In this document: piece by piece, positions 32,215 to 63,940 of the stretch | How the letters are laid out: each line of letters opens with the position of its first letter | How positions within the stretch are numbered: the first letter of the stretch is position 1 | IMG/VR virus record: IMGVR_UViG_3300020045_001394 | Location: 4,415 to 68,414 of that record | Strand: one strand, 5' to 3' | Source of the DNA: a virus | DNA: 64,000 bases | Program-made: the position numbers and the translations under genes | The notes under the pieces: generated by a model | The model's database searches: none | What the model was told of the DNA's origin: nothing | The model's input: only the letters and a program-made list of their open reading frames with translations

Positions 32215-32635
32215 ATTGCGTCGCAATGAATAGTGTATATTATGTGCATTGCACATGAACAACCAATCGTCCTTACGGACAACACAGAACATAAGGCTGT
32301 ACGCTGTACAGATAAAAATCAAACACAAATCAAGAAATCTCTTGACGTTGCTTTTGATCTGTCTTATAAGAAGTAATTACTTTCTGTGTGGACACACAGA
32401 ATATAGATCAAGATCACAAGCAACAGCTTGGATTTGTATTGGCTGTATTTTATTTTATGGCATTCCGTCAGGAATGGATACATTGACTCTGGTATCCGAA
32501 GGTGCGTCCCGTACCAAGGATATATAATATGGATGTCGTGGACTGGTACAGAGCTTTTGTACCAAGATTTGTGCTAATTTCAATAGCTCTGCTTGACATT
32601 CTGGTACATATGCTTGTACACTGAACATCGTTCAG
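32215..32635. repeat. Palindrome/hairpin array A (non-coding, at the strand-divergence point)
   Basis: About a dozen short inverted repeats, e.g. ATTGC-GTC-GCAAT 32215, ATGTGC-ATT-GCACAT 32242, CTGTAC-GCT-GTACAG 32297, TTCTGTGTG-GA-CACACAGAA 32382, CATTCC-GTCA-GGAATG 32461, CTGAAC-ATC-GTTCAG 32621. Confidence 0.85.
32405..32437. repeat. 33-bp element; perfect inverted copy at 63319-63351
   Basis: AGATCAAGATCACAAGCAACAGCTTGGATTTGT versus ACAAATCCAAGCTGTTGCTTGTGATCTTGATCT. Confidence 0.95.
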
Positions 32636-32663
32636 AATAGTACATTTAAGGAGAACAATTCTC

Positions 32664-33407
32664 ATGCAAGACAGAATTCAGAAAGTAAAAGATTTACGCA
32701 CACAAGGTTATAGTCGTGCTAAGATTGTCAGCATTACAGGGTATCCTGATCGTTTTGTGAGGGCTCACATGAAAGACGTAGAGAAGACAGGTAAGCCTCT
32801 TGTTTCAGCATTTGACAAGAGTGTAGCTGATGTGTTTCCTTTGTGCATCAGGCAACAAGGGTGCAAGGAGTGGGAAATGCGGGAGATTCTTCATAAGCAC
32901 TATGGTGTAGTTTGGAATACGTCTAAAGGCGTGTATGAATCTAGCTTCAATGCAAATACTCGTCAGCGTGTACGTGATCGTTGTAAGGAGCTAACTGAGG
33001 ATGGTCAAGTGGCTGTGTTCATTCCTGATTGGGTGGATATTGCAAACCCTACAGCGAGTCGAGTTGGTATCGAGTCATTAGCACTCAGCTTGCAAGAGTA
33101 TATCGAAAATTCTGTGGAGGAATTTATGAACAGTTTTGGCGCTCCGTTTGGAAGCACAGAGCGAGTGAAACAGGCATATGCAGCCCGTGAACATATCTTG
33201 AAGGTAGCAATCAGAGGGTATAGCTCAGAGCCTGTGGAATCTCTTCTTGAGAATACTAGGAACGCAACGGACACTATTGAGTACGGACTGTGTGACCTAC
33301 CTATTCCTAAGTTTGACAAAGGATATGAATCTCAGTCATTCCACCCTGAGCCTACAGATGATGGAGTGTTCCTTGATTTTGTTGAGAGTCAAGGATGGGT
33401 AAAATGA
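32664..33407 (+). CDS. Hypothetical protein with N-terminal HTH
   Basis: KVKDLRTQGYSRAKIVSITG..DRFVR HTH-like segment; AAGGAG RBS; promoter TTGACA(32593), 18 nt, TACACT. Confidence 0.75.
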   Translation: MQDRIQKVKDLRTQGYSRAKIVSITGYPDRFVRAHMKDVEKTGKPLVSAFDKSVADVFPLCIRQQGCKEWEMREILHKHYGVVWNTSKGVYESSFNANTRQRVRDRCKELTEDGQVAVFIPDWVDIANPTASRVGIESLALSLQEYIENSVEEFMNSFGAPFGSTERVKQAYAAREHILKVAIRGYSSEPVESLLENTRNATDTIEYGLCDLPIPKFDKGYESQSFHPEPTDDGVFLDFVESQGWVK

Positions 33408-33988
33408 AATATAGTGAATACCTTACTGAATATAAAAGAAGTGCGGTAACAAAACTTGAGGCATACATCTTTGGATTTGATGATCTAAGTAAAGGGTGGA
33501 AGAAAAGATATTCTGATTTTGAGATTACAGATGAAATGCTTGAAATACTTAGTAGTCACTCAGGGAAACCAAGCAAGCAGCAAAGACGCGTAAGAAAGAA
33601 AATGATTGATAAAGAGCAAAAGACAGCACAATATCAAGTGACAAATAATCAGTACCTATATTTGATGAAGAATCCATCTGGTATGCTTAAAATTGGCATC
33701 AGTAAAGATCCGATGAATAGGGCTAAGACTCTTTCGAACGCTGCGGGTGTTCTAGTAGTTGTTATTGCCTTTTGGGAACTTGACAAAAACTCGCGAACAG
33801 TTGAGAATTTCTTACATAAAAGGTTTTCAGATGGCAGGTTAGAAGGTGAGTGGTTTAAGCCGGATTGGTTTGACTATCTTGAAATTGAAGAAAAGATGCA
33901 AGAGATTCAGTGCGGCTTCACTAGAACATATTTGGCGGATGAAGCTAAGATTTTTAGGTTTATTCCGTCGTACCCTTGGACAAAATAA
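33395..33988 (+). CDS. GIY-YIG T5orf172/MUG113-like domain protein
   Basis: YLYLM...KIGIS..P..R...L...E..LHKRF...R..GEWF motif. Confidence 0.85.
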   Translation: MGKMKYSEYLTEYKRSAVTKLEAYIFGFDDLSKGWKKRYSDFEITDEMLEILSSHSGKPSKQQRRVRKKMIDKEQKTAQYQVTNNQYLYLMKNPSGMLKIGISKDPMNRAKTLSNAAGVLVVVIAFWELDKNSRTVENFLHKRFSDGRLEGEWFKPDWFDYLEIEEKMQEIQCGFTRTYLADEAKIFRFIPSYPWTK

Positions 33989-33994
33989 ATCACA

Positions 33995-34029
33995 AGCCCC
34001 TTGACGGGGCTTTTCTTTTGCCTTAAAAT
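33995..34029 (+). promoter_or_regulatory. Overlapped terminator/promoter with the -35 box in the hairpin loop
   Basis: AGCCCC-TTGAC-GGGGCT-TTTCTTTT; TTGACG(34001-06), 17 nt, TAAAAT(34024-29). Confidence 0.7.
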
Positions 34030-34341
34030 CAGCTCATCAAACAGGCCAGAGCACCAACAGATGGACACAAGATCAGAAATATTCAGCAGAATGTCTGATG
34101 CATACACTAATAAAGAAAATAGAATATTCAACGATGCCTTAAACTTTCACCTGGGGTTAACACAAGATTTATCCGCTGCTGCGTTAATTTGCATGAAAGA
34201 TAGAATTAGTGTTGAGATTTGGCCAAAGGATCATAAGAAACTTTATTTAGATAATCGACTAATTTGTGAAATTTATCCTTTGACAATTGAAATGCATGAG
34301 AATACACTGACGACTAATTTCAAGTACAGGATTTATCCTAA

Positions 34342-34842
34342 ATGAATATATTCTCCACAAACATTTGCCCTATCCAGTCAGCTAAAGACCACTGTATGGT
34401 TCACCTCAGGAAAATGGTGGTGGAGGCGCTACAAATTTTGAGTACAGCACATTTTGTTCTGGACGGTGTTAAAGTGGGATATAAACCTACGCATCGTAAT
34501 CATCCGAGTTGCATTTGGACCCGTAACACATCCGCTAACTATCAGTGGTTGTATGCTCACTACAAGGCTTTATGTGAGGAATATACGTTCCGTACAGGAA
34601 AGATTCACAAGAGCAGTGAGTGGATGGGAGTGATGGCTGTACAGCCTAAGAATATTCCTATCGGAAGCCTTGATCCTTTTGCTATGCCAATGCCTGAGAG
34701 CTATCAGTGTCTTGGATTGTTTGACCAGACTAAAGCATTCCAGGCTTATCTTAACGATAAATTCTCAGAATGGGCTTGCAGAGAGAAGCCAATTGAGGTA
34801 TCTTGGGGCTCTAAATGTGAACGCCCGGAGTGGGTTAAATGA
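34342..34842 (+). CDS. Pyrimidine-dimer DNA glycosylase / endonuclease V-like protein
   Basis: MNIF...P..SA..H...H..KM..E..Q.LSTAH...YK.TH.NHP...W...NY.WL...LC.EY..R.GK.H motif; upstream promoter TTGACA(34280), 17 nt, TACACT. Confidence 0.8.
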   Translation: MNIFSTNICPIQSAKDHCMVHLRKMVVEALQILSTAHFVLDGVKVGYKPTHRNHPSCIWTRNTSANYQWLYAHYKALCEEYTFRTGKIHKSSEWMGVMAVQPKNIPIGSLDPFAMPMPESYQCLGLFDQTKAFQAYLNDKFSEWACREKPIEVSWGSKCERPEWVK

Positions 34843-35699
34843 CTGACCAAGAACGAATCGACAAGCTAACTAAGACTTTACAAAAGATTTCCTTGGAGCT
34901 TATTGCTGCTGGTAATACAGAGCCTCAAAGATGGCACAGCAGTAATGAAAAGAGTTCTTTTCCTATTTTAAAACGTATGGGTGAAGAAGGTATGTTAGCA
35001 ATTGCTGAAGTTATGTTTTAATGAACGAATACGATGAAGACGTTGTTGGTATTGTACAAGAGCGATTCCTTGATGGTGATCGTGGTAGTTATTTTGAAGG
35101 AGTTATCCTAGCTCCAACAATTATCAAAGAGAAAGTACGTCACGGAACAAAGCTCTATTCTGAAGAGTATGTACGTTATTTGAAATTACAGATTCTCAGT
35201 CTTGAGCAGCAAATTGATGAAATGTATATGGAAGAGCGTGTACGAGGAGAAAATGATGACTAAAATTATGAGCGTAGTGTTTACATTTTTGTTGGGGATC
35301 ATAGCCACTCTATCCTTAATATCAATTGCAACACCAGACGAAGCAATGCCTGGAACCTCATGGCGTAAACTAGATATTTGTGAAAAGAGCTTGCCACGGG
35401 ATCAGAAATGCATTATTGTGGCTATACCAAACGTAGAGCAGAAAGCTCTTAATGAAATTAAAGGGGAAATGAAATGAGTTCTAAATATAAAATTACAAGC
35501 CTACCAAAAGAAGATGAAACACGAGTAGACCTCTATGGTGCCTCGGTGGGAGATATGCTACACTTCGCACGCTTAGATAGCGAAGATATGGTATGGATTA
35601 AAGGATCTGATGTTTTTCGTGAAGGTGGATATTCTAACCTTGGAAGAGTCTGTGTAGCGTGTTCAATGGATGATTTTTAAAATATGTTGAGGAAGTGAA

Positions 35700-36107
35700 A
35701 TGACCTATTCCACACGATTTATCCTACTGTTTAGTGTGCTTGTTGTGCTAGCAGTATGTCTACCTAAGAAAGATGCTAGCGCGTCTCCAGAGCATGAGAA
35801 CCCTAGTAAACAATACGATTGTCTCATTGATTATGAGCTAGGTAAGAGTAATATGCTAGGCTATCAGCGTGGGATTCCACTTCCCATGATGCTAGAGAAA
35901 TTTGGTGATACAGATCAGAATATTTCTCAGATTCGTGAGGCGTACACATGGCCTAAAATGAGTCTTGAAAATAATCAGGATACAATGATTGAAAAGTTTG
36001 CTGTAGAGATGTACAATCGCTGTATCGCACAGCAACCAAAAATGAGCACAAAGCATGAGCCAGCTAAATCAGATGCAGAGCCAAGTAAGCCATTCTGGAA
36101 ATTCTGA
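35700..36107 (+). CDS. Exported or membrane-anchored hypothetical protein
   Basis: N-terminal hydrophobic signal segment (FILLFSVLVVLAVC) and two further Cys. Confidence 0.65.
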   Translation: MTYSTRFILLFSVLVVLAVCLPKKDASASPEHENPSKQYDCLIDYELGKSNMLGYQRGIPLPMMLEKFGDTDQNISQIREAYTWPKMSLENNQDTMIEKFAVEMYNRCIAQQPKMSTKHEPAKSDAEPSKPFWKF

Positions 36108-36376
36108 AAGCGTCATTAACAATGACCATCCGTACAGAGAAAGCTTCCAAGAATGGTACAATGAAGAATATGCTTTCTTCCTAAGACGCAAACGTCAGCA
36201 TTATGACCTTGTAATTATGGAAGATGGGGAGTATAAATGGGATACGCCAAAGAATGCTTATCGTATTTGGGTGGCGTGTGCAAAGGCTATGGAATTTGCT
36301 AAGAAGGCTTAATAATTCAAAAGGAGAGTCTTGTGGGCTATGAACGTAAGAAATTTAGTAAGCAAGGGGAAGATGA

Positions 36377-38134
36377 GTGAGCAATAAATATGGGATTGAT
36401 ACATCCCATGAGCACAAAACCGGCTGTCCAAGGTGCATCAGGAATGGTCAAGATAAGTCTAAGAATAACCTCCACGTCTACGGAGAAGGCAAGGGAGCAT
36501 TCTGCTGGGCCTGCGAGTGGACTTTGCCTAGTGATGATTGGCTTGAAGAACATGGCGAGATTAAAGATGATGAAGAGGAGTTTGATTATATGGGTGCTGA
36601 GTTTAACCAAGAGATTCATGACAAACTAAAAGAAACCACCTCTGTAGATCCTAAAGGCTGGAGAGGTCTTCGACGTGATACATGCGCTTATTTTGGTGTC
36701 CGACATTCGTTTAATACCGAAACTGGTGAAGTTGAGAAACAATATTATCCAACTACTCAAAATTATGAGTTGACAGGGTATAAATTTCGTTCAGTACCTA
36801 AGGACTTTGGAGCTATTGGCGCTACTGGGAAGCAGTGCGAATTGTTTGGGCAGTTCCGTTTTAAGGAGGCAAAAGGTAAATATGTTCTTGTTGTAGCTGG
36901 TGAAATTGATTGCCTAAGCGCATACCAACTCTTGGCCGACTACCAGAAAGGTAAAGGCTATGAGCCTATCCCGGTAGTTTCCAGCACTATTGGTGAGTCT
37001 GGCAGTAGCAAACAAATTCAACAACAATATGCCTTTCTAGACCAATATGAACGTATCCACATTTGTTATGATAATGATAAGGCAGGCAAGGACGCTGCTG
37101 AGAAAGTGGCTAAAGTGCTGCCTAAAGGAAAGGCTTATATTGTTAATTTGAGTTTGAAAGATTGCAATGAATACTTAGTGGCGGGGAAACAGAAAGAATT
37201 TATTAAAGCTTTCTATGATGCCAAAGGTTATACACCAAATGGTATCGTTGGCAGCGGTGAGCTGTATCAGAAAATTCTAGATGAAGTGGAAGCTGATAAA
37301 ATTCCTTTTCCGCCTTTCATGAAAAAACTCAATGAGATGACCGCTGGCGGCCTGAGCCTAGGAAAACTGTGTAATATCGGGGCAGCAACTGGTCTAGGTA
37401 AGACTGTGTACGTTGATTCTATTATTTATCATCTTATTTTTAATAGTCCATACCGTGTTGGCGTCGTGAGCATGGAACTTAACAGCGGTCAATATGGCTT
37501 ATCTATGTTATCACGCCACGTTGGACGAAAGATCGCAAATATTCAAGATAAGGAAGAGCGTAGTAATTACCTTAAAAGTGAGTATGTACAACAAAAACAA
37601 AAAGAGTTGTTCTTTAAAGAAGACGGCTCACATCGTTGGCACTTGGTTGATGATCGTGATGGTTCTATTGATGACATGAAGTCCCTTGTTGAACAACTTG
37701 TGATTAGCTGTGAGTGCAAAGTAATTGTACTAGATCCATTGCAGGATATCTTGGATGGTATGAGTAATGAAGACCAGGCGTTGTTTCTTAAATGGCAGAA
37801 AGGCTTGATCAAAAGTCATAACATGAGCTTCATCAACATCAATCATGTCAGGAAAAGTGGTAATTCTTCCCAGTCCAGCTCCAATGGCGGAATGATTACA
37901 GAAGAAGATTTTGCTGGCAGCTCTACAATCATGAAATCCGCCGCACTGAATATTCTTCTAGTCAGAGACAAGATGAATGAAGATCCAGTAATCCGCAATA
38001 CAACCCGTGCCTTCCTGAGTAAAAATCGGGATAATGGCATTACAGGTCCAGCAGGATCGTACTACTACAATAATGAAACACATCAACTACAGGACTTTGA
38101 TGAGTGGTTGGAGCAAAATCCACAGGAGTTTTAA
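36377..38134 (+). CDS. Primase/helicase (T7 gp4-like)
   Basis: Zn finger CPRC...CWAC, TOPRIM GEIDCL and YDNDKAG, Walker A GAATGLGKT, SME, LDPL and HVRK motifs. Confidence 0.95.
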   Translation: MSNKYGIDTSHEHKTGCPRCIRNGQDKSKNNLHVYGEGKGAFCWACEWTLPSDDWLEEHGEIKDDEEEFDYMGAEFNQEIHDKLKETTSVDPKGWRGLRRDTCAYFGVRHSFNTETGEVEKQYYPTTQNYELTGYKFRSVPKDFGAIGATGKQCELFGQFRFKEAKGKYVLVVAGEIDCLSAYQLLADYQKGKGYEPIPVVSSTIGESGSSKQIQQQYAFLDQYERIHICYDNDKAGKDAAEKVAKVLPKGKAYIVNLSLKDCNEYLVAGKQKEFIKAFYDAKGYTPNGIVGSGELYQKILDEVEADKIPFPPFMKKLNEMTAGGLSLGKLCNIGAATGLGKTVYVDSIIYHLIFNSPYRVGVVSMELNSGQYGLSMLSRHVGRKIANIQDKEERSNYLKSEYVQQKQKELFFKEDGSHRWHLVDDRDGSIDDMKSLVEQLVISCECKVIVLDPLQDILDGMSNEDQALFLKWQKGLIKSHNMSFININHVRKSGNSSQSSSNGGMITEEDFAGSSTIMKSAALNILLVRDKMNEDPVIRNTTRAFLSKNRDNGITGPAGSYYYNNETHQLQDFDEWLEQNPQEF

Positions 38135-39202
38135 ATGGCAATAAAATATTTACAAATTGGTCAAATTCTCGAAAATAAGGATGGAGAAAAATATGTAATT
38201 GAAGGCCTTGAGAACTGTAAATCAGTAAAAATCCGATTCCTCTCAAATAGCTCAGTTAAATATATAACTGCTCATTCTGCATATCGAGGAATAGTCCTTA
38301 TTGGAGAGAAGTACTTAGACAAGAGTGGGGAAGAAATCACTGTAATTTCTAAAAAGAATCAGGAGAATATTACTGTACAGTGGGATGATGGTGAAACTCG
38401 TACTTTGGGCGCATACAGAATTGAAAATAGATTAGTAATCCGGACTAATGATAATAAAAATATTAATCCAACCGTTAAGGTTGGGCAGAAATACATTAAT
38501 AAGCAGGGATCTGAGATTAATGTTTTGGAGTATAAAAACTCAGCTAGAATTTTGGTAGAGATAGGTAAAACAAAATACCAGAAGTATGTGACATCTGGCA
38601 ATTTAATATCTCTCAATGTGCATGATAAGTATGCCCCTTCAGTTGCAGGGAAGGGTATTTTTGGTGATGCTGTTGTAGATGTAAAATCTCAAGTTTATAC
38701 TTCTTGGGCGGGGATGCTAAAACGGTGTTATAATTTTTATGAATATAATCCCAGAGCAAAGATTAATTATGAGAGCTGTGAGGTTCATGAGGATTTCTTA
38801 TACTTACCGAATTATATGGAGTGGTATGATAAGCAAATTGTTCATCCAAAGTGGCAACTTGACAAGGATCTTCTAGTTCCAGGTAATAAAGTATATGGCC
38901 CAGACAAATGCATATTTTTACCAAGAGCTTTGAACACATTCCTTACATTAAGGGGAAACGAACGTGGCCCCTATCCTCTAGGAGTAACAATTCACGAGAA
39001 GACAGGTCACTATGAGGCAGCTTGTAATCGGGACGGGAAACGGATATACTTAGGCGTGTATAAAACACCTGAAGATGCATTCGAAGCCTATAAGGCCGAG
39101 AAAGAGGCCTATGCCAAAGACCTTGCAGAGCGTTGGAAAGAACAGATTGATCCACGCGCCTACCAAGCACTCATGGAGTATCAAGTAAACATTACAGACT
39201 AG
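38135..39202 (+). CDS. Free-standing homing endonuclease-like protein with three N-terminal repeats
   Basis: Repeated G..Y/L.NK.G....V units; W..MLKRCY, WQLDKDLL.PGNKVYGPDKC.F and YLGVY.TPE.AF motifs; same family as 9422-10102. Confidence 0.82.
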   Translation: MAIKYLQIGQILENKDGEKYVIEGLENCKSVKIRFLSNSSVKYITAHSAYRGIVLIGEKYLDKSGEEITVISKKNQENITVQWDDGETRTLGAYRIENRLVIRTNDNKNINPTVKVGQKYINKQGSEINVLEYKNSARILVEIGKTKYQKYVTSGNLISLNVHDKYAPSVAGKGIFGDAVVDVKSQVYTSWAGMLKRCYNFYEYNPRAKINYESCEVHEDFLYLPNYMEWYDKQIVHPKWQLDKDLLVPGNKVYGPDKCIFLPRALNTFLTLRGNERGPYPLGVTIHEKTGHYEAACNRDGKRIYLGVYKTPEDAFEAYKAEKEAYAKDLAERWKEQIDPRAYQALMEYQVNITD

Positions 39203-39212
39203 GGAGAAATAG

Positions 39213-39764: not shown

Positions 39765-39777
39765 CTAGGAGTAACAA

Positions 39778-41889
39778 ATGCTAGGCGAAAATGAGATTAT
39801 TCTCGATATTGAGGCAGATGGGTTTATTTTTGAATCCACAAAGATCTGGACCGTCTGTGCGACTAACATCCAAAGTGGTGAAAAGATCAAAGTAAATCCA
39901 TTTAAAGATAAATCTGCTAAAGATCAGCTAATCTCATTCATCTTTAAAAAGCCTAGTCCAACTATTGGATTCCACTTTGGTCTCGGGTATGACATGTTTG
40001 TTCTTCAAAACTTGTTGGATATTAATTTCACAGTTGGCAAAGATACAATTGAAGGTCAGCCAGTTCAGTTTGTAGATACGCTCTATTTAAGCATGTTTCT
40101 TAATCCAGACCGTGTTGGGCACAGCGTTGAGGCTTTCGGTGAAACTCTTGGCCTTCCTAAGATTGATTGGCGTGGCAGAGCCATTGAACTTGGATTGATT
40201 GAGAAAGATAGTCCAAAAGGCCAAGAGTTTATGCAGTGGCATCCAGAAATGGATATTTACTGCGAGCGAGACGTTGATGTTAACGTAATGCTCTATGAGT
40301 ATCTCAAGAAGGAATGGCGAGATGTTTATGGAAAAGATTTTAGTATTACAGATGCATTTAAGTGCGGACAGAAGTCATTCTACCTAATGTCTTGTCAAGA
40401 ACTCACTGGATTTAAATTTGATGTTGAGGGCGGTTTAAAACTTAAAGATCGGATCGGCATCATGATGGAAGAAATCAGGGCAGAGGTAGAGCCTAAACTT
40501 CCACCAAGGGCTTTAAAGAAGTCTGAGGAAAAGTATTATAGCATGCCCGCCAAGCCTTGGAAAAAGTCGGGGGAGTTCTCATCATCATGGGAAAAGTTTA
40601 TTGAGAAGCACAATGGTGTTCTTGATGAAAGTACTGGATTATGGGAACTCTATGGCGAGAAGTATCCCGTGGTTGCTGGTGCTATGCTGAACATTAAATT
40701 ACCAATGGAGATGGCTAACCAAGACCAGATGAAAGATTGGTTCTTGGAAAATAACTGGTCGCCAACCCTCTGGAATTTCCAACGAGGGCCAGATGGGAAG
40801 CCAATGCGTGATCCCAAGACTCGACAATTGATTCAAACAAGCCCAAAGATTCAAGAACAAGGTAAGATTTGTCCTAACCTGATGAAGCTGGAAGGCGATA
40901 TTGTTAAACAAGTTGTAAAGTGGTTGAGCCTCCGTAATCGACAATCTGTCTTGGAAGGTTGGCTCACAAATGATCGTCTTCAAATGGATGGGCGTATTGG
41001 CGCCGGACGGAGCGGTATTGCGGCAACACACAGGCAGAAGCATAAAACCTGCGTGAACGTCCCCAAGGCGTCTGAGAAGGTTTTGCTTGGTAAAGAGTTC
41101 CGTTCTTTGTGGATTGCAGAAGATGAGATGCTTATTGCTGCTGGGGATGCTGCTGCACTAGAGGGACGGGTCCAGGGCCACTATTGTTTTAAATATGATG
41201 ATGGTGCGACTGCTGAAGAATTGTTAAAAGGTGACGTTCACTCAAAGAATGCTTTTGCTTTCTTTGGGCATGAAAATGATCTTCAGCAGTTTGATTTCCA
41301 TAGTCCAGACTTCAACAAGGAACATCCAAAATTTAAACCATATCGGGATAAAAGTAAGAACGGATATTATGCTTGTATGTATGGTTGTGCAGGCGCTAAA
41401 CTTGCTTCCACTCTTGGCCTACCAGTCAAGATGGGGAATGAGAAGCTGGAGGCATTCTGGGAGGCAAACCCCGCAACCAAGGCACTGAAGGAGAATTTGG
41501 AGAAGTATTGGGAGACAACCGGTAGGAGTAAATACCTGCCTGCTATTGACGGGCGTATGCTTTGCACTCGAAAGAAGTCTGCACTATTGAATACAATCTT
41601 CCAGAGTTGTGGGGGCATCTCAATGGACTATGCACTATGTTTTATGGACGCATGGTTGGGAGGATTAAAGTGGAAAGACCGTAAACCTTACTATGTGTAT
41701 AAAGGTTTTGTGGTAAAACGTGTTGCCTACATGCATGATGAGGTAGAATTTGAGTGCGAGGAATCTATTGCAGAAGAAATCTCGCAGATGATCGAAAAAG
41801 CTATTGAAAAGGCTGGACAATATCTCAAGCTTAAAGTACCATTAGCAGGTGAAGGGAAGGTAGGGAAATCTTGGTGTGAAGTTCACTAA
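39778..41889 (+). CDS. DNA polymerase, family A (T7 gp5-like, with 3'-5' exonuclease)
   Basis: Exo I DIEAD, Exo III YCERDV, motif A DAAALEGR, motif B RDKSKNGYYACMYG, motif C HDE. Confidence 0.95.
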   Translation: MLGENEIILDIEADGFIFESTKIWTVCATNIQSGEKIKVNPFKDKSAKDQLISFIFKKPSPTIGFHFGLGYDMFVLQNLLDINFTVGKDTIEGQPVQFVDTLYLSMFLNPDRVGHSVEAFGETLGLPKIDWRGRAIELGLIEKDSPKGQEFMQWHPEMDIYCERDVDVNVMLYEYLKKEWRDVYGKDFSITDAFKCGQKSFYLMSCQELTGFKFDVEGGLKLKDRIGIMMEEIRAEVEPKLPPRALKKSEEKYYSMPAKPWKKSGEFSSSWEKFIEKHNGVLDESTGLWELYGEKYPVVAGAMLNIKLPMEMANQDQMKDWFLENNWSPTLWNFQRGPDGKPMRDPKTRQLIQTSPKIQEQGKICPNLMKLEGDIVKQVVKWLSLRNRQSVLEGWLTNDRLQMDGRIGAGRSGIAATHRQKHKTCVNVPKASEKVLLGKEFRSLWIAEDEMLIAAGDAAALEGRVQGHYCFKYDDGATAEELLKGDVHSKNAFAFFGHENDLQQFDFHSPDFNKEHPKFKPYRDKSKNGYYACMYGCAGAKLASTLGLPVKMGNEKLEAFWEANPATKALKENLEKYWETTGRSKYLPAIDGRMLCTRKKSALLNTIFQSCGGISMDYALCFMDAWLGGLKWKDRKPYYVYKGFVVKRVAYMHDEVEFECEESIAEEISQMIEKAIEKAGQYLKLKVPLAGEGKVGKSWCEVH

Positions 41890-41898
41890 AATAACCCC

Positions 41899-41927
41899 TT
41901 GACACCTTTTCCACCACAGACTACAAT
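41899..41927 (+). promoter_or_regulatory. Sigma70 promoter
   Basis: AAAATAACCCC-TTGACA, 17 nt, TACAAT. Confidence 0.8.
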
Positions 41928-41961
41928 CCATCCCGAGAACATATATTAACAGGAGAATAAA

Positions 41962-43007: not shown

Positions 43008-43014
43008 ATAATCC

Positions 43015-44284: not shown

Positions 44285-44298
44285 TAAGCTAAGACTAA

Positions 44299-45650: not shown

Positions 45651-45669
45651 AGAGTAAACTATTGTGGTA

Positions 45670-46900: not shown

Positions 46901-47226
46901 AAAAGATGTACATTGCTGTTCTAGATGAAGTACCTGATTTTATGGTTCCAACTCTTGTAGCTCATTCCGTACTAGGCGCCCATCTTGCATTCACGAATTC
47001 AGAGGCCTATGATGATTGGCTTACTAATTCTTTTAAGAAGGTGGTATTGAGAGTGGGTCGTAAAGAATTTGATAAGATTGCCAGTCGTCATTACTGCTAT
47101 AAGGGGCATGAGAATACGACGCTTAATGGCGAGAAAAGCTGTTTGGTTATAGTACCTATGGAACCTTATGAAGTGCCTCCTGTACTCAGTTTTGCTAAGA
47201 TGTGGAAACCAAAGGAGGCTCAGTGA
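46897..47226 (+). CDS. Peptidyl-tRNA hydrolase 2-like protein
   Basis: KMYIAV...VAHS...W....FKKVVLRV pattern of Pth2-like proteins. Confidence 0.7.
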   Translation: MKKMYIAVLDEVPDFMVPTLVAHSVLGAHLAFTNSEAYDDWLTNSFKKVVLRVGRKEFDKIASRHYCYKGHENTTLNGEKSCLVIVPMEPYEVPPVLSFAKMWKPKEAQ

Positions 47227-47768
47227 CAGATAAAATTGTATGGGGACCAAATACCCCGTGGAAAAATTCAACAGCTTGGTTCACGTATTTACGCGGGTGT
47301 TTACGCAAAGCATGGTCACGACATCCCACAAGGATTGCTGTAGTTAACAAGAATCGTAAGCAAATTGACAACCCTGGTAAGGGCTATAAGAAGACGGTGT
47401 GGGGGTTTGAATGCTGCCTTTGTCATAGGGAATACACAATCAAAGAGGCTCAAGTGGACCATATCGTTCCTGCTGGCTCTTTACAGAAGACCTCAGATAT
47501 TCAAGGGTTTGTAGAACGCCTCCTGTACGTCACCGAGGATGACCTGAGGCTTGTGTGCAAAGGATGTAACTCTGCACTTGCATATCATGACAAACAAGGT
47601 GTATCCTTCGAGCTAGCTGTAGCTACAAAGAAAGCAATCCAAATGGAAAAGGACAAAACAATCCTTGCATTCCTGCAAGAACAGGCTATACTCCCTGAGA
47701 AAAGTGCAAAGGCTCGTAGGCAACAAGTGGTGGATGTTCTAATCAAACAGGAGAAATTAAATGGCTAA
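47202..47768 (+). CDS. HNH endonuclease
   Basis: LR..LR..W.R.P, C..C...QVDHI.P and LRLVCKGCN motifs. Confidence 0.85.
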   Translation: METKGGSVTDKIVWGPNTPWKNSTAWFTYLRGCLRKAWSRHPTRIAVVNKNRKQIDNPGKGYKKTVWGFECCLCHREYTIKEAQVDHIVPAGSLQKTSDIQGFVERLLYVTEDDLRLVCKGCNSALAYHDKQGVSFELAVATKKAIQMEKDKTILAFLQEQAILPEKSAKARRQQVVDVLIKQEKLNG

Positions 47769-53524: not shown

Positions 53525-53776
53525 AAGAGTTAAATCTACCACCAATGAGCGAAAGTATGGAAGACATTTTCAAGCAATATAAAGAAATTATGGAGAAATG
53601 TCACAATGAAAATAAGACTAAGAAAGCAATTTACAATCAACATGGCTTCTTAGTTTGGGAAGAACCTCTTGAAGAATATGAACAACGGATGAAAGAACTA
53701 AGTGACATTGAAACAAAACTATGATACAATGCTTGTCCAAGATAAGAGTTTCCTTTAATGAATAATAGGAGAGAAT

Positions 53777-54873: not shown

Positions 54874-54876
54874 GAC

Positions 54877-57132: not shown

Positions 57133-57319
57133 TTATGTTGATCTAATGGCTAAGGTTGGAGTGTTGTCTAATGTCACACATTCCTGTCCTAAATGCTCGG
57201 CACCGGTGCGATGTGACATTTCATTAGGAAAGAACACATGCTGGTGCTTCAATATTCAGAGCAAAGGGCTTGAAATGAATGACATTTGCATGTGCAAAAG
57301 CTGCCTGATAAATATCTAA
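57125..57319 (+). CDS. Cysteine-rich CWC-family small protein
   Basis: CPKC....C......CWC.......CMCKSCL. Confidence 0.75.
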   Translation: MADYVDLMAKVGVLSNVTHSCPKCSAPVRCDISLGKNTCWCFNIQSKGLEMNDICMCKSCLINI

Positions 57320-57400
57320 AATAACCCTTGACTCCCCTCTAAAATCCTCTAGAATGGATAACAAGCGGGGAGGACAAGCCTTCCTAATAGGAGAAACAAA

Positions 57401-60400
57401 ATGTCTAAATATGCTCTCGCTGAATCCATGATCAAAGCCATTATCATGGAACATGGCGCTCGAGGGTTGGCTGTAGCTCTGAATAATGCTTGCGTTAATG
57501 GGAAGGTATTCCTTCAAGCTGACCTGTTCTTGGGTAAGGATGACAGTATCCTGCAAGAGTGGTACAAAGGTATTGATAAGCTCTCTGAAGTAGCTAAGAA
57601 AATTAAATAAGGGGAAGAGATATGAGTTCTTGGCAAAATACCACTTCGCGCTCTAAAGGCTCAGACAGGAGCGAGATACGTTCCGTGGAGCTTTCGGTTG
57701 GGTTAGGCAGACTAGTTGTTACCAGGCACATCCACTACGAGCCTGACCAATGGACGGCAGTATTCGACGGTGTATTTTCTCGCGTAGTAGTGTCAAACGG
57801 CACCGTTGAAGATGCTAAACAAAAAGCTATCATTTTAGCAAACAAGAAGCTCTCTGAAATGATGACCCTACTCTCAGAGAGTGTGTGATTCTCTCCTAGC
57901 CCCGCATTGCGGGGCTTTCTTTCGCCCAGAATAAAGCTCTAAAATAATATAAATATTCCCAAAATAAATGCTTGACAGGGATGCCGCATCCCTCTAGAAT
58001 TCATCACATACAGAAGGAGACACAACGTCTCCTACACAAAAGGAAATTTAGAATGAAAAAGTTTATTGGCGAGCTTCGAGTTGGTGATGTTATCAACGCC
58101 CGTGTTAATAAGTCTCTTTATAAGACTCCGTGTGTTGTTGAGAGTATTTTATTTGTAACTCAAGACGAAGATTTCGAGTTTGCTGAAATGGTCCTTTCAA
58201 GTGGCTTGCTGCACAAAGAAACACAGACTTGGTATACAATTGAAACTGTAGAAGTACTTGAACGAAAGTAACCTTACAGAATCTTATTGACACATTGAGA
58301 ACATTCCAATAAGATTGCTACAACAAATAAATAATTGGAGAGATACCATGAATAACGAAGATCAAACTTACCTGTTACGTGCAGCCCTGGGTGACATGCT
58401 TAATTATTATGACCGAAACGCTTGTCAGCACGAAGATGTTTATCGAGGTGGTGCTATTTGGACTATCTGTGAGTCTTGTGGAAAGAAGTGGGCAGACGAT
58501 GAGGGTGGGTTTGTTCCCTATATAGAGCCTTTATTTGTTTCTTTGGCTCGACGAATCTTTGATAATAACTAAGAGAGCTGACACGCCATGCTCACACATA
58601 AACAAGAACGAATCATATCTACAGTGTTTGGCGTTATTGTAGGAATTCCTGTGCTATTGACAGTGGCTATCACATGCTGGATGATTTATAATGCTGTTTT
58701 GGTGGAGCTTGGCTTGTGAAAACTCTCCCATCTGAATTTAATTCAATCGTTAAATATCTTCAAGACAGTCCATCACCAGAATTTATTGAGGCTCAATATA
58801 TGAATGCTGTACATGATTTCGCTCAAGATTGGAAACCTAAGCAAGTAAAAATTATCCACAAGATTGAGGATGTTTTGAAGTTGGCTGCTCTTGTAGCTTG
58901 TACTTCTCTTATTGGGATGGTACTCTTTCAAGCCTGGCAGAGCCAGTGTAGCTAATACGTTTTAGCAAGAATGCGCTTATAGATGTAGCTAACCGTATAT
59001 GGAGAAAATAGATGCCCTTCTTTACCGTCGCGGTCGTATGCACAATGTCCTTGTGCTCTGATTATTACATTGACACAGCCTCAAATAAAGCGGATGCTAT
59101 CCTCAATATATCTTCTCACAATGAACAATATTTATCTATATGGGAAGATGAAAAAGGATTGACAGCTTGGCTCATTAAGCATAAGATTGGTGAAACAGTG
59201 TTTGAAATTGTCTCGCTTGATATTCAGACACAAGAAATTAACGAAGAGGAATTACCATGAATAAGGCTGAATTTGACTCTTGGTTCCATGCGCTAAGCTC
59301 TACTCATGTGTTGGGGCTTCTTGCACCAGTTTGTAAACGTATAACATCTTGCTCAGGAAATAATTATGTTATTGACGGAGATATAGATAATTTGCTAGCA
59401 TTCCTGTATCAAGAGAAGTATAATCAAGTTTTTGGAGAGGAAGAATAATGATCACAACACGATTGCACGGAATGTACAAAGCGCTTGGCGACAATGTAGG
59501 AGTGATTCATCTTCGAACATTGTTGACTTCCAGTACATGGCTTGCTACTCTTTGCGCTGAAGATCCTAGTGATCTTAGTAAAGCTAAGTTAATTAAACAG
59601 ATTTGAGGAGAAGCAGAAATGAATTTCAAGGTTGGCCTTACTGGACCAGATCATAGTCCGACTGCACAAACAAAATGGTATGCTCAGGTTATGCTAAATT
59701 CTTGGGATGAACTCCCCATTGGAGCAAAAACATTTGCGTTTGGGGATACTCCAGAAAAGGCGATGAGTGAGCTTATGTTGTACCTACGTGCAGAGGCCCT
59801 TTTGTTGCTTTTCAACACAAATAAGGACACAAAATGATCGACCAATCTCTAATGCGTATCAATGGTCACGTATTGTCTATCATCGCTCCTAGCTTGCTGG
59901 AGGCGTACAAATTCCAGGAATTGGAAGGCTTTAAACAGGCTAGTGTGCTTGTGAAAGAGGATGGCACTATTTCTGTTAGCTTTCCTCTTGATAAGGAGTC
60001 TCAGAAACGATATGCATGGCTATATCATAAAATGAAAGGACTTAATGGGGATGATAAGCCACGTCCTCCAAGTGGAAAGCCTCCAAAGGGGAGCGGCCCT
60101 AATAATGGAGGCTCTGGTGGTACACCGTCAGCGGGCAGTATTACAGAATTTCAGAATGTGCAAGCTATTGCTGCTTAAGGATAAATCATGAATAGAATCT
60201 TTACATACGACGCTTTCGATTCCACCGGTGTAGCTGAGACCTTCACGCTTAAGGTGAATAGCTTACAAAATTCTGATAAGGAATATCTTGGAGATCTAGA
60301 TTATGAAGTACTAGAAGGAGATATCCGCTTGTTGTCTGAAAGTCAAGCTCTAGATATGGAAATTTGTATTTCGGAGCAATATATCGAAAGATGGAATGAC

Positions 60401-60412
60401 TATATGAATTGA
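57401..60412 (+). other. Cluster of small early-type hypothetical genes (57401-57610, 57622-57888, 58053-58271, 58348-58572, 58716-58955, 59012-59260, 59257-59448, 59619-59837, 59834-60178, 60188-60412)
   Basis: Short ORFs with RBSs downstream of strong promoters. Confidence 0.75.
57898..57923 (+). terminator. Rho-independent terminator
   Basis: AGCCCCGC-ATT-GCGGGGCT-TTCTTT. Confidence 0.85.
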
Positions 60413-60420
60413 CAAATATT

Positions 60421-60488
60421 GCCCACCATTTTGGTGGGCTTTTCTTTGTCTTTATTTTGTTGACGATGTTCTTGATGTACAGTATGCT
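60421..60488 (+). promoter_or_regulatory. Terminator + promoter cassette, copy 3 (plus strand)
   Basis: GCCCACCA-TTT-TGGTGGGC-TTTTCTTTG...TTGACG(60460), 17 nt, TATGCT; same stem as the 26 kb and 30.9 kb copies. Confidence 0.8.
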
Positions 60489-60674
60489 GTGATTACTGGA
60501 GCGGTTCAGAGGTAAACAGGAAGAGTGGACGCTATTCTAATAAAATCTATTAGGAATTGCTCCCTGATAGAAATCTTTGTAGAAAATAATCAAAAGTATT
60601 TGTTGACTGGGACACAGAACTTGGTAGAATGGACACATCGAAAGGCAAAACGCCTTAATAAAGAGAAATAGATA

Positions 60675-60791
60675 ATGGCTTACGTAATCATTGCCGCTGA
60701 ATACTTTGCTGTAGCTTCCCCTATATTACTAATCCTTGGTGGCTTATGTTCTCTGATTTCTGATTATCGTTTTAAGAAATCTTTAAAATAA
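60675..60791 (+). CDS. 38-aa single-TM peptide (not in the ORF track)
   Basis: MAYVIIAAEYFAVASPILLILGGLCSLISDYRFKKSLK; downstream of the promoter at 60603. Confidence 0.55.
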   Translation: MAYVIIAAEYFAVASPILLILGGLCSLISDYRFKKSLK

Positions 60792-60862
60792 GTGTTGACT
60801 GAGAGACGAAAGTCTCTCATAATCCACCCTATCGAAACGACAAACCACCCGGAGCAGCAGCC

Positions 60863-61036
60863 ATGAACTTCCAAGCCAACCAAGCAATCACTTTGATAAA
60901 GACCAATATTATTAACGACAAAAAGCTGATTGGTAAGAAAGGGGTCGTAGACTTCCAATGCAAAGATAGCATGGTTTGGGTAAAGTTTGGTCGTACTTCT
61001 CGATGCGTACCTCCTGAATTTATCCAAGCAATCTGA
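60863..61036 (+). CDS. 57-aa SH3/KOW-like small protein (not in the ORF track)
   Basis: GGAG RBS; ...IGKKGVV......VWVKFG...; promoter at 60795 and terminator at 61041. Confidence 0.7.
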   Translation: MNFQANQAITLIKTNIINDKKLIGKKGVVDFQCKDSMVWVKFGRTSRCVPPEFIQAI

Positions 61037-61040
61037 GACT

Positions 61041-61064
61041 AGGCCCTTCGGGGCCTTTTTATTT
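61041..61064 (+). terminator. Rho-independent terminator
   Basis: AGGCCC-TTCG-GGGCCT-TTTT. Confidence 0.9.
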
Positions 61065-61123
61065 ATCTATATAAAACTTTATGTTCGCCCATTCTTCCTT
61101 CTCAGGAGTGACCCAGTGCTAGA

Positions 61124-61152
61124 ATCATAATATACACCTATACTCTTGTCAA
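61124..61152 (-). promoter_or_regulatory. Divergent minus-strand sigma70 promoter with no evident downstream gene
   Basis: Minus strand TTGACA, 17 nt, TATGAT. Confidence 0.65.
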
Positions 61153-61261
61153 GACCTAAAATAATCTCAATTCTCATGAAAATATCTGTTGACAGGGAAT
61201 ACATGTGCTGTAGAATTGGTCACAAGAAAGCAAATAACCCCCTCCTAAAAGGAAGAATGAA

Positions 61262-61405
61262 ATGAAAAGCCCTGAATTCTACGAAGGTTTCCACTCTTTC
61301 AAAGCACGCCTTACTGTTGAGGCTTGCCCTTATCGTTTTAACCCTTCTGCTGCAAAGGAATGGAAGCGTGGTTTTGCTAAGGCTCAGTCCGAAGTTAAGC
61401 CATAA
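61262..61405 (+). CDS. 47-aa Rmf/CrpP-fold-like protein (not in the ORF track)
   Basis: MKSPEFYEGFHSFKARLTVEACPYRFNPSAAKEWKRGFAKAQSEVKP, with G...CPY...W..G pattern; own promoter at 61189. Confidence 0.7.
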   Translation: MKSPEFYEGFHSFKARLTVEACPYRFNPSAAKEWKRGFAKAQSEVKP

Positions 61406-61594
61406 GCAGTAGGGTAGCCTATACAAAAGATTATCGCGTCTTTTAGGGGCTAAAAAGCATTAGAAATAGCCTATTTCTCTTTGAAATAATTGGTAGTTTG
61501 AGAGAATAATGCTTGCATGCTATTCCAGTTGCTATATACTTGGTCTCAAGAGGGAAGGAAAGAGTCCTACCCAAGATGAAAGAGATATCCCACC

Positions 61595-61735
61595 ATGTAC
61601 AATGTAATCAACCGAAACACTGGTGCTGTTGTAAGCAAGAATCTCAAATCTAAAGATGCTGCTCGTAAAGCTCGTGATCGTCACGACAGCAAATATGGGA
61701 CATATGTCCACAGCATCCAAGCTGTTACCCTCTAA
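61595..61735 (+). CDS. 46-aa hypothetical protein (not in the ORF track)
   Basis: MYNVINRNTGAVVSKNLKSKDAARKARDRHDSKYGTYVHSIQAVTL; downstream of the promoter at 61513. Confidence 0.65.
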   Translation: MYNVINRNTGAVVSKNLKSKDAARKARDRHDSKYGTYVHSIQAVTL

Positions 61736-62235
61736 GGGAATCACTACCATGCAAGCAACCCCTGTCAGAATGAGTACGATTGAACAACGAATATCTTCTA
61801 ACGAAGATGCTCTGATCTCTTGGGAAAGTAGCTTGGCTAAATAAGGCTGCTCATAAGGGTGTACGCTTCGCCTACATGAGTGATGAACAATAAGAGGTTG
61901 AACTATTGGAAATTGAGCGTAGGAGGGAGGAACAAGGTATTTGGAAAGCTGGACAACGTTAGGGGGAAGTGTTATAAAGAATAGCCCAACAATTTGTTGG
62001 GCTTTAGACGTTTGGAGGAATAATGTGACAGAAGAAGGGAACGCATACAACCCGCTATGTAAATGTAAGGACTGTACAGGGGAGGGTCTGGGACGGATAA
62101 CTCACACCAGTCCGGAACAATCAAAGAAAAGACTCGATAAAGCTTGTAAGGAAAGGGAATTGTACCTTCTAGAGATGAATCTACTAGACCCTTGCCAGCG
62201 CATATACTTAGGAATTAAACCATAAAGGAGGGGAA

Positions 62236-62946
62236 ATGGAAGACACAGAAGTCCAAGTGGACTATAAAGAGATAACCGAACTGCAAAATAAACTAGATGA
62301 GAAGCTTAATATTCTTGCTACATCTGGGGAGAAAGGAAGGGCCTTTGCTATTGCCAACAGCTTTTCTAAGAAACTAGCGAAGAACCTATCTGCTAAGAGT
62401 ACAAGGGAGAAGTTAGGGCACACTTTTGGAATGACCGCCTGTACGTTACAAATTCAGTATGCACTAAAGCCTATTGATACAATCAAGATGACAGCAGAAC
62501 ATCTTGGCTATGACTTCGATAAAATAAAGGAGGGCGGTATGCACCATGACAAGTATTACCTAACTCATAGGTGGGTGTCGGGTAATCCTGAGTTCTTTAA
62601 TACAGAAGACAATCCATTACTGTCTAAAGTGGACCTTAGAGGGGCTGTTAGAGATGCCACAACCATTAGTAGCGGTATTGGTCAAATGCACAGTTATCAG
62701 GTGTTGGATGAACAAGTAAAGGCAATCCTCAAGGAAAACAAAGAAACCAAGAAAGAGTTGTCTGAAATAAAAGCTAAGCAATTGATCCAAGAAGTGGATC
62801 TAAAACATATCCAGGATGTTAGTGGTTGGGTGGGTGATCCTAAAGAGAAGGCTAGGAACCTGCGCATAGCAGGGTATAAATACCACGAAATTGCTAAGGC
62901 AATGAGTAAGGCTGAGAGCACTATCCGTAGATGGTTGTCAGAATGA
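62236..62946 (+). CDS. Hypothetical protein with coiled coil and C-terminal HTH
   Basis: AAGGAGG RBS; LRIAGYKYHEIAKAMSKAESTIRRWL HTH. Confidence 0.8.
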   Translation: MEDTEVQVDYKEITELQNKLDEKLNILATSGEKGRAFAIANSFSKKLAKNLSAKSTREKLGHTFGMTACTLQIQYALKPIDTIKMTAEHLGYDFDKIKEGGMHHDKYYLTHRWVSGNPEFFNTEDNPLLSKVDLRGAVRDATTISSGIGQMHSYQVLDEQVKAILKENKETKKELSEIKAKQLIQEVDLKHIQDVSGWVGDPKEKARNLRIAGYKYHEIAKAMSKAESTIRRWLSE

Positions 62947-63077
62947 GCGCTTTTTGAGCGGTTCAAAAGGTGTTTTCCGCATGTAAAACATATATATGCG
63001 GAAAGTAGGAATGATACTAAAATGATACTTTTAAGGTGTTTTGTGCCTAATATAACATCTATAGACATAATTATATT

Positions 63078-63103
63078 GCCCTCTTGACTGAGGGCTTTCT
63101 TTT
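63078..63103 (+). terminator. Rho-independent terminator
   Basis: GCCCTC-TTGACT-GAGGGC-TTTCTTTT. Confidence 0.8.
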
Positions 63104-63126
63104 GTATGTACATTTTTGACTGAGTG

Positions 63127-63940
63127 CAATCATGACTGATTGGCCTTATCAGAATGATAGAAGAATGTGTATACTCAATGCGAACCGCATTGGACAGTGT
63201 AAGCTCATTGCAAGGCAATGGGGAATGTACGCCTTTGATCCTCGCTCTTGCCTTTCGGCAATATCCCTACCACCTACGACCTCACGGTCGTGCCTCTAAT
63301 AATAAAAAGAATCTAGACACAAATCCAAGCTGTTGCTTGTGATCTTGATCTTATCTCATGTGTCCCACATGGAACATTCTTGTATCCACTGCATAGCAGT
63401 GAAAGCATTAGCCATATCACATGCCTTGCATGTATCAGCACCATTCATTGGCAGCGCCAATAGCTTACACTCTCCTGTGCTGTAGCACAGAATATAGGGC
63501 TACTCCTCTCTACATATAACCATATCTCTGTAATAGTGAAAGCCTTATAAGATAAGGGATAGCCACAGTTTCACTGTGAATATATCCTCCCCTTTGTGGA
63601 CACAAAGAATACTATTATTTAGTGTACAAACTATTATTGTATTAATGATTAATATCGTGGTATTTAGGCTCTCTATCCACTGCCATGCAGTGAGTATTGT
63701 TATCTATCTCCGGGATATCCTCTCTGTAAGGCTTACTTACCTTTGGTATATAGGCTTATACCTCTAGTATGTTACCTTATCCTATTAGTATGTTAAGCAC
63801 ACTTCTCTATCTAAATCAACTCATTCTTGCATCGCAAGGTACATATCTCACCCATAATTAATAAATCCTGTCCAATTATATTATTCTATCGATACATCGA
63901 TAGCTATTAACACAATTCATTATCAATTCTCAGATGAGAA
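63127..63940. repeat. Palindrome/hairpin array B (non-coding)
   Basis: At least 17 short inverted repeats, mostly 5-7 bp arms with 3-4 nt spacers, starting at 63127, 63176, 63206, 63248, 63276, 63326, 63357, 63387, 63419, 63447, 63475, 63543, 63564, 63592, 63678, 63826 and 63886. Confidence 0.9.

Follow-up and report, generated by a model that had tools for sequence, protein, structure and literature searches.

Why should a lytic phage carry two hairpin-rich, non-coding regions, some 31 kb apart, that share an identical 33-nucleotide (nt) element in opposite orientations? The question is raised by a stretch of viral DNA of 64,000 nt, the window, which consists of bases 4415-68414 of the 68,414-nt contig IMGVR_UViG_3300020045_001394 (G000 below) and ends where the contig ends; coordinates are window positions unless another genome is named. 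We call the shared element the 33-mer and the two regions locus A and locus B. The answer that we favour, with a probability of roughly 40%, is a combined reading in which locus B is the terminal region of the phage chromosome and the 33-mer would act as a docking module, tying replication control to the chromosome end. Its first component, that locus B holds the genome ends and packaging signals, we consider probable, because gene order and a hairpin hot spot match those of a gap in phage PaP1 where a terminal redundancy has been mapped. The two regions are as follows.

32092-32663, unstranded: locus A, the divergent gap between a minus-strand tail-fibre-like gene and the plus-strand replication block
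63096-64000, unstranded: locus B, a gene-free array of mini-palindromes reaching the contig end

The identity of the two copies is exact. As the original prediction had it, 32405-32437 is the reverse complement of 63319-63351 (33 nt, 100%), and across the whole contig this is the sole inverted chain of exact 20-mers, the chance expectation for such a 33-nt match in 64 kb being about 3e-11. Each copy consists of a GATCA direct repeat, then a stem-loop of 5 base pairs (bp), CAAGC-aaca-GCTTG, and then GATTTGT. For comparison we use a relative, G001, a 90,622-nt record rated 100% complete, which was reached through the gene that follows locus A (HTH_A, 92% identical there) and which aligns with G000 at 85% identity over locus A and 78% over locus B; the 127-nt overlap between its ends sits in coding DNA and looks like a circular-assembly overlap. 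The copies, with their counterparts in G001, and the block that copy B adjoins are these.

32405-32437, plus strand: 33-mer copy A; 4 of the 33 positions are changed in the G001 orthologue, the loop accounting for 2
63319-63351, minus strand: 33-mer copy B; 2 of the 33 positions are changed in the G001 orthologue, each of them a loop position
63310-63550, unstranded: best conserved block of locus B, ~90% identical to G001, the rest of the locus being at 50-80%; copy B is its left edge

Co-conservation in related genomes had been proposed as a check on the pair, and G001 does hold exactly two copies, inverted and ~31 kb apart, as in G000. Its two copies differ from each other at 3 positions, and the state of the loop is alike within each genome (AACA and AACA in G000, TAGA and GAGA in G001), which points to occasional homogenisation between the copies of one genome, presumably by gene conversion. 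Beyond the 33-mer itself, homology between the loci is limited to an AT-rich tract, 8-14 nt past the GATTTGT end (32444-32459 beyond copy A), and to the position of a hairpin 4-5 nt past the other end, whose presence is common to both loci and whose sequence is not. The hairpins described beside the copies are all present, TTCTGTGTG-ga-CACACAGAA at 32382-32401 and CATGTG-tcc-CACATG at 63357-63371 (with a GGA loop on the minus strand). The AT-rich tract adjoins the 33-mer in all four copies from G000 and G001, and there is a single 33-mer per locus. An exact and degenerate pattern search of viral contigs returned G001 as the only further carrier, and the degenerate pattern had no match in metagenome contigs.

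What kind of region is locus B? Hairpins were counted as perfect stems of at least 6 bp with loops of 2-6 nt, against 300 first-order Markov simulations. Locus B has 17 in 905 nt (simulations: mean 1.3, maximum 5) and locus A has 6 in 572 nt (mean 0.8, maximum 4), so that the mini-palindrome arrays reported at both loci are borne out. Hairpin density over the whole contig is 1.87 per kb; its densest 1.4-kb window is locus B, with 20 hairpins, and the best window elsewhere has 7, at locus A. The palindromes of locus B mostly have 6-bp stems and 3-nt loops, often of the form ...TGC-NNN-GCA..., and include the CTTTGTG-ga-CACAAAG hairpin noted earlier, at 63592-63607. On its left the array is bordered by a terminator.

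63078-63095, plus strand: intrinsic terminator closing the replication block, the left border of locus B

In G001 the corresponding gene-free array (27436-28881 of that record, 1,446 nt, compared with at least 905 nt in G000, where the contig ends) is flanked by convergent terminators at 27418-27435 and 28882-28899, with one transcription unit arriving from each side.

The position of this region can be compared with that in named phages. The window is a fragment of a ~90-kb lytic myophage of the Pakpunavirus/Otagovirus-like kind; at the DNA level its nearest named phages are of those kinds, with ~65-70% identity in the primase-helicase gene only, and its host is probably Pseudomonas, since these phages infect Pseudomonas and the other homologues of HTH_A are Pseudomonas chromosomal proteins. 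The block order of G000 and G001 recurs in PaP1 (Pakpunavirus) and PHB09 (Otagovirus): a plus-strand structural block, a short minus-strand block, a divergent gap, the replication block with a primase-helicase ~3.7 kb into it, a convergent gene-poor gap of 1.2-1.6 kb, and a minus-strand block. For PaP1, the available part of the published account gives a 1,190-bp terminal redundancy containing g156 and g157, with ends mapped by run-off sequencing (PMC3652863), and both genes fall within the convergent gap, which in the PaP1 record is at the right-hand end. That gap (HQ832595, 90068-91715; g156 and g157 are its only genes) holds 19 hairpins over 1,648 nt, the genome as a whole having 2.05 per kb, and the PHB09 gap (NC_073677.1, 87590-88976; 1,387 nt without annotated genes) has 18, against 2.02 per kb. 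The best 1.4-kb window of each genome is this gap, with 20 hairpins in G000, 20 in G001, 17 in PaP1 and 19 in PHB09; the best windows elsewhere have 7-8 (8 in both PaP1 and PHB09), and simulations across these genomes give means of 1.3-2.3 and a maximum of 7. Of the 5 whole genomes or contigs measured, 4 have this gap as their densest window, and the hallmark is present in 4 of the 6 genomes or parts of genomes examined.

Locus B therefore resembles the PaP1 terminal redundancy in occupying the same slot in the gene order, in its similar size and in being the only hairpin hot spot, and the PaP1 stems are likewise of 6-7 bp and often GC-ended next to the loop. It differs in that there is no sequence similarity between the two, in its stem consensus (..TGC-N3-GCA.. 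in G000, ..AGC-N3-4-GCT.. in PaP1 and CATAGC-N3-4-GCTATG in PHB09, the shape being alike), and in the lack of any element common to the PaP1 terminal and divergent gaps; moreover, the PaP1 ends were mapped experimentally, while locus B is known from its sequence. Packaging had been among the roles first suggested for the two loci, and it gains support from a locus B that sits where PaP1 has its mapped redundancy, in the same hairpin hot spot. The accompanying statement that no described system matches was too strong, since the PaP1 redundancy is a described counterpart. Locus B would in this respect be a known kind of region, like the terminal redundancy of PaP1, and its conserved hairpin texture is undescribed as far as the literature searched: word searches, which do not prove absence, brought up no account of such arrays in the terminal repeats of phages of this group, and the available text of the PaP1 paper leaves the array unmentioned and says that the genome lacks complicated secondary structures (PMC3652863).

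We also need to explain at what level the palindromes are maintained. Between G000 and G001, 21 hairpins of locus B could be compared, a sample of two genomes in which no true covariation analysis is possible. Changed positions number 36 of 69 in loops, 132 of 515 in spacers and 43 of 252 in stems; loops diverge about twice as fast as spacers (P = 1.4e-5) and stems differ from spacers at P = 0.008. Both arms are unchanged in 10 of the 21 hairpins, where 0.7 would be expected at spacer divergence. It weighs against taking these figures at face value that stems were defined as perfect in G000, which biases their conservation upward; a test at halved divergence, which allows for this bias, still gives 4.1 expected intact stems against the 10 observed (P = 0.003). 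The loop has changed in 8 of the 10 hairpins with intact stems, and in three hairpins (63419-63433, 63475-63490 and 63564-63578) the loop of one genome is the exact reverse complement of the other while the stem is unchanged (ctt/aag, gt/ac and ttc/gaa). Inversion of a spacer at short inverted repeats by polymerase template switching is described in the source consulted (PMC8604942), and the three loop inversions have that form; the likeness is to a mutational mechanism and implies no function, but it does indicate hairpin formation at the level of DNA. Of the stem changes that would be wobble pairs, each strand has 5, and there is no strand bias. From stems that are kept, loops that change or invert, and the absence of strand bias, we conclude that the palindromes of locus B are maintained at the DNA level, as dyad sites or single-strand hairpins, and not as an RNA array. 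The same comparison goes part of the way to showing that hairpins form in the DNA and that stems are under selection.

That the arrays are structured non-coding RNAs, with the 33-mer part of one, is accordingly a reading to which we give very little credence. Conserved stems with varying loops, and significant fold energies, are what it would predict, but the even split of wobble-type changes (5 against 5) is not, and no sequence in the window matches Rfam 15 at gathering score; stems of 5-7 bp with 2-4-nt loops are also marginal as RNA hairpins. Furthermore, the array lies between convergent terminators, and the study of the related phage PAK_P3, in the part available, reports transcription of all genes except the one at the predicted genome terminus (PMC4933390). 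The window contains no tRNA or tmRNA gene.

Locus A has a different anatomy. Its principal features are the following.

32318-32442, unstranded: imperfect palindrome of ~115 nt, centred on the 9-bp hairpin at 32382-32401
32308-32322 (plus), 32348-32362 (minus) and 32409-32423 (plus): members of a 15-mer family of the ACAGATCAAAAGCAA type, in alternating orientation
32593-32622, plus strand: sigma-70-like promoter TTGACA-18-TACACT ahead of the gene at 32664-33407, a consensus match only
32134-32163, minus strand: sigma-70-like promoter TTTACA-18-TATACT, with TG, facing the minus-strand genes, likewise only a consensus match

The right arm of the palindrome is the 33-mer itself, and the left arm (32323-32362) is an inverted copy that has diverged and includes a small hairpin of its own. 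Folded as DNA the palindrome reaches -21.2 kcal/mol (z -4.3) and its G001 orthologue -23.1 kcal/mol (z -6.2). No large palindrome was found in the divergent gaps of PaP1 and PHB09, and because those gaps hold nothing comparable, the two-site 33-mer and the large palindrome are, on this comparison, inventions of the present lineage on an older architecture. The two promoter-like sites, a class whose counts did not exceed those of shuffled sequence, flank the palindrome facing outward, do not overlap it and lie ~430 nt apart, a stretch for which neither promoter would have a use. As a matter of anatomy, locus A is a divergent control region ahead of the replication genes. Between divergent promoters, negative supercoiling favours the melting of DNA and the extrusion of hairpins, and this may apply to locus A.

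Such a setting invites the view that the 33-mer is simply a transcription signal, an operator or a cassette of stem-loop plus promoter, that has been reused in two intergenic regions. T4-type phages provide the proposed likeness in their promoter-early stem-loop cassettes. The 33-mer is intergenic at both loci, copy A points to the replication operon, and its small hairpin followed by a T-rich tract (CAAGC-N4-GCTTG, GATTTGT) passes a loose terminator filter in either place, but the stem has 5 pairs and no proper U-tract follows. By eye, TTGGAT can be found in G000 with TATTTT or TATTAT 17-18 nt on, but the promoter scan made no call on the 33-mer, the -10-like hexamer is lost from copy B of G001, and the better promoter-like sites flank locus A without overlapping the element. 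There is no multi-copy motif family of the kind that a reused signal would form, the abundant repeated 10-12-mers being terminator tails only. Copy B, finally, would drive antisense transcription towards a terminator, or through a region that is presumably silent, to judge from the available account of PAK_P3 (PMC4933390). We regard this reading as possible rather than probable.

The second feature common to the two loci is a gene with a helix-turn-helix (HTH) motif beside each.

32664-33407, plus strand: HTH_A, 247 amino acids, with an N-terminal HTH (phrog_3855, E 1.6e-5)
62236-62946, plus strand: HTH_B, 236 amino acids, with a C-terminal HTH (sub-threshold HTH_23 and Sigma70_r4 matches, residues 210-235)

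The adjacency claimed for them holds, locus A lying directly upstream of HTH_A and locus B downstream of HTH_B. Likewise, the two loci do bracket the replication block, with the primase-helicase, PolA, exonucleases, methylase, ThyA and RNR between them. Profile and structure searches, which the original prediction had called for, gave an N-terminal HTH match in HTH_A but no link to initiators: its model (predicted local distance difference test, pLDDT, 65) is good for residues 1-120 only, a Foldseek search of the PDB returned nothing at E <= 0.001, a PDB profile search gave weak LuxR-type HTH matches only, and no fold or profile match to any initiator was found. The model of HTH_B (pLDDT 49) was too poor to search, apart from which it has a confident C-terminal three-helix unit.

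Paired replication origins, each with the adjacent HTH protein as its initiator, were the most specific proposal made for these loci, and they would account for the adjacency and for the AT-rich tracts that flank the 33-mer; SPP1, in the studies discussed below, also has two origin-like sites in one phage. However, HTH_A and HTH_B are unrelated to each other although the 33-mers are identical, and neither has a homologue in PaP1, PHB09 or the more distant relative G002 (IMGVR_UViG_3300041411_000074, 89 kb, its primase-helicase 93% identical in the best segment), though PaP1 and PHB09 have the array. The HTH_B homologue in G001 is 25% identical and is set apart from the array by other small open reading frames (ORFs), and a homologue with 84% identity occurs on a 92-kb contig; for HTH_A there is a protein cluster at 98% identity. 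Homologues of HTH_A with ~43% identity occur in Pseudomonas chromosomes, directly after a tyrosine integrase and with an HNH nuclease and a serine resolvase nearby, and they have no common upstream motif. We consider paired origins of this kind very unlikely, and the idea of an initiator dedicated to each locus is not supported, on the points just given; the HTH genes are probably accessory bystanders, and their adjacency to the loci a coincidence.

As a separate observation, the chromosomal HTH_A homologues lie in genomic islands (4219-6726 of Pseudomonas locus L019, and loci L020-L024), a mobile-element family that is common to these chromosomes and a lytic phage.

Several sequence likenesses were examined and set aside. 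A resemblance of the GATCTTGATCT core to oriC 13-mers, part of the case for origins, is without support; possible DnaA boxes, IHF sites and sigma-54 promoters, judged by eye alone, were too weak to retain. With 206 GATC sites observed against 248 expected, this motif shows no excess, nor does it cluster exceptionally at the loci, and an explanation in terms of GATC and Dam was therefore abandoned.

Two inverted elements that flank a segment, and whose length is near that of known crossover sites, could also invert that segment, as gix does with Gin, cix with Cin and hix with Hin. In the present case the 31-kb replication segment would turn, and the replication operon would be turned against its promoter region. 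In Pfam and/or PHROGs profile scans of 40 window ORFs, a set that does not cover all small ORFs, no serine or tyrosine recombinase was found; G001 is collinear with G000, in the same orientation, and PaP1 and PHB09 have the same block order. Inversion is the least credible of the explanations considered here. The more general proposal of a two-site system acting in cis fares better than these particulars: matched cis-regions are indeed kept as a pair in G001, whereas initiators of their own and inversion are not supported.

A role for the 33-mer as a recognition or cutting element of the terminase, with the copy in locus A secondary or fortuitous, would fit the position of copy B, which borders the best conserved block of what is probably the terminal region. 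The pac site of P1 consists of clusters of TGATC-containing hexamers; the tandem TGATCT TGATCT resembles these, and the phage encodes a DNA methylase. There are two such hexamers only, however, and the methylase is of the PF01555 type, whose specificity is not known. PaP1 and PHB09 have arrays without any such element, and a packaging site 31 kb inside the genome would produce truncated genomes. We think it unlikely that this is what the 33-mer does.

Several results weigh against our own reading and have to be set beside it. The link between locus B and PaP1 is one of synteny and shared architecture, not of sequence, and a blastn search of 61500-64000 against 50,697 phage records gave no match. 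G002 lacks both a hairpin hot spot and any long inverted repeat, and its DNA matches neither locus; in Felix O1 (first 45 kb examined) the convergent gap at 12305-13928 is only mildly enriched, at ~5 hairpins per kb. As regards the 33-mer, it is conserved no better than its neighbours within each locus, and PaP1 and PHB09 have no repeat common to the terminal and divergent gaps, for which reason the two-site element is, as far as these genomes indicate, specific to its lineage and cannot be a general requirement. With up to 3 mismatches allowed, the 15-mer family occurs 8 times in the window where 4.0 would be expected, which is not significant genome-wide; 3 of the 8 lie inside the 115-nt palindrome and one in the 33-mer of locus B. 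No initiator-like protein was identified, and upstream of the chromosomal HTH_A homologues there is neither a 33-mer-like sequence nor a motif common with locus A. In the case of G002, the replication block is similar, but there is no gene-free convergent gap (68700-70400 of that record), and the convergent point is a bare bidirectional terminator; its terminal region must be elsewhere or be organised differently.

Two of these results, the unexceptional conservation of the 33-mer and the absence of the pair from PaP1 and PHB09, are also what would be expected if the pair had no function, and were a hairpin stretch copied from one hairpin-rich region to the other by recombination or template switching and occasionally homogenised since. 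Loops that are alike within a genome fit this explanation, as does the proneness of the loci to template switching that is evident in the loop inversions. Yet both copies persist in two genomes whose non-coding DNA is only ~72-85% identical, the homology between the loci extends to the AT-rich tract and to the placing of the adjacent hairpin, and the element in locus A is an arm of a larger, conserved palindrome. Copying without function is unlikely on this evidence.

In the combined reading, locus B would be a gene-free, transcriptionally insulated gap, placed between the replication block and an oppositely oriented block, in which the genome is cut and packaged. The 33-mer would be a docking module for one DNA-binding protein, present once at each locus and kept alike by gene conversion. 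Locus A would be an origin or an operator, and the 33-mer of locus B would be either an end-proximal secondary start site or a site of fork arrest and processing, comparable to oriL and oriR of SPP1. According to the portions of the SPP1 literature available, one protein binds both oriL, which lies by the replication genes, and oriR, which lies in a non-coding segment bracketed by transcription signals (PMC6316719, PMC3485210), and forks that stall at oriR are proposed to set off the synthesis of concatemers (PMC6316719). As described there, the SPP1 sites are also two distant sites of alike build, with repeats and an AT-rich tract, one near replication genes and the other in an insulated non-coding segment. 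They differ in having several direct repeats, bound by gp38, where the present phage has a single 33-mer per locus, inverted, and no gp38-like protein was found; SPP1 also packages by the headful from a pac site and not with fixed terminal repeats. The comparison is a functional analogy only.

A second analogy may be drawn with T7. At the T7 concatemer junction there are promoters or secondary origins close to the end, and the ends form through a hairpin intermediate. Cis elements by the terminal repeat take part in replication as well as in the maturation of ends, and palindromic DNA is implicated in end processing. T7 has direct terminal repeats, and its type of primase-helicase together with PolA is also found in G000. 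Unlike the present phage, T7 has promoters for its own RNA polymerase and is not known to have an array of ~20-30 mini-palindromes; the 40 ORFs scanned in G000 included none for a phage RNA polymerase.

A wider reading may be put forward only very tentatively, and we doubt it more than we credit it. This holds that ~20-30 mini-palindromes, diverse in sequence and constant in shape, form a conserved functional module of the terminal repeat in a whole group of Pseudomonas myophages, namely Pakpunavirus, Otagovirus and the present lineage, and that here the 33-mer couples the terminus to a palindromic origin 31 kb away. The array would act as DNA hairpins or dyad sites, docking the machinery for packaging or for end duplication, priming the copying of the repeat, or shielding the incoming DNA end from host nucleases or hairpin-sensing defences, or decoying these. 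One protein binding both 33-mers would then set the moment at which early replication gives way to the formation of concatemers and to packaging.

The end of the contig deserves separate comment. Its last 69 nt (63932-64000, plus strand) are an exact repeat of 62295-62363 inside HTH_B, a restart that gives a head-to-tail junction of 1,637 nt spanning most of locus B, including its 33-mer. Similarity to G001 stops at ~63931, and beyond this point 42 of 300 shuffles score as well. The native copy of the 69 nt is the one inside HTH_B, because the N-terminus of that protein is conserved in 5 of 5 close homologues. The junction could reflect a duplication in tandem, the joining of genomes end to end, or an effect of assembly. 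The notion that the 69 nt are an untrimmed terminal repeat was rejected: homology to G001 ends at the junction, and the copy in HTH_B is native. The record is classed as linear, with an estimated completeness of 66%.

The gene content of G000 is that of a virulent tailed phage, as judged from the same profile scans of 40 ORFs, and is arranged around the two loci as follows.

Left part of the window: terminase large subunit and Mu-type portal
Structural part of G000: tail genes
25285-32091, minus strand: short minus-strand block, ending in a tail-fibre-like gene
30907-32091, minus strand: tail-fibre-like gene
Plus strand, 30 kb: replication block with primase-helicase, PolA, exonucleases, PF01555 DNA methylase, ThyA and RNR
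36377-38134, plus strand: T7-type primase-helicase
39778-41889, plus strand: PolA

The replication and packaging modules contain four genes of homing-endonuclease type, at 33395-33988, 38135-39202, 47202-47768 and 817-1209; one is T5orf172/GIY-YIG-like, two are HNH and one is of Endonuclease VII type. The last of these types directly follows the terminase nuclease-domain ORF that ends at 708, an arrangement consistent with an intron there. There is also a family of near-identical intrinsic terminators with a common tail of the GGGCTTTTCTTTG type, at 26038-26077 and 30856-30895 and at several sites in G001, and among 10-12-mers no motif recurs more often than this one in either genome.

As therapeutic candidates, phages of the Pakpunavirus type are in wide use, and the structure of their ends and the biology of their packaging are of practical interest, the replication origin, packaging signal and mode of end formation being undefined in these phages. 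If the 33-mer pair were a relic of recombination, what remained would be an ordinary terminal region with a conserved and undescribed hairpin texture. A lone hairpin hot spot in a convergent, gene-free gap would provide a sequence signature by which genome ends may be recognised in metagenomic contigs of these phages. If it is true that the array lies in the terminal repeat and that the 33-mer links it to replication control, the two loci would offer mutable cis-elements for end cutting, for duplication of the repeat and for the coordination of replication with packaging.

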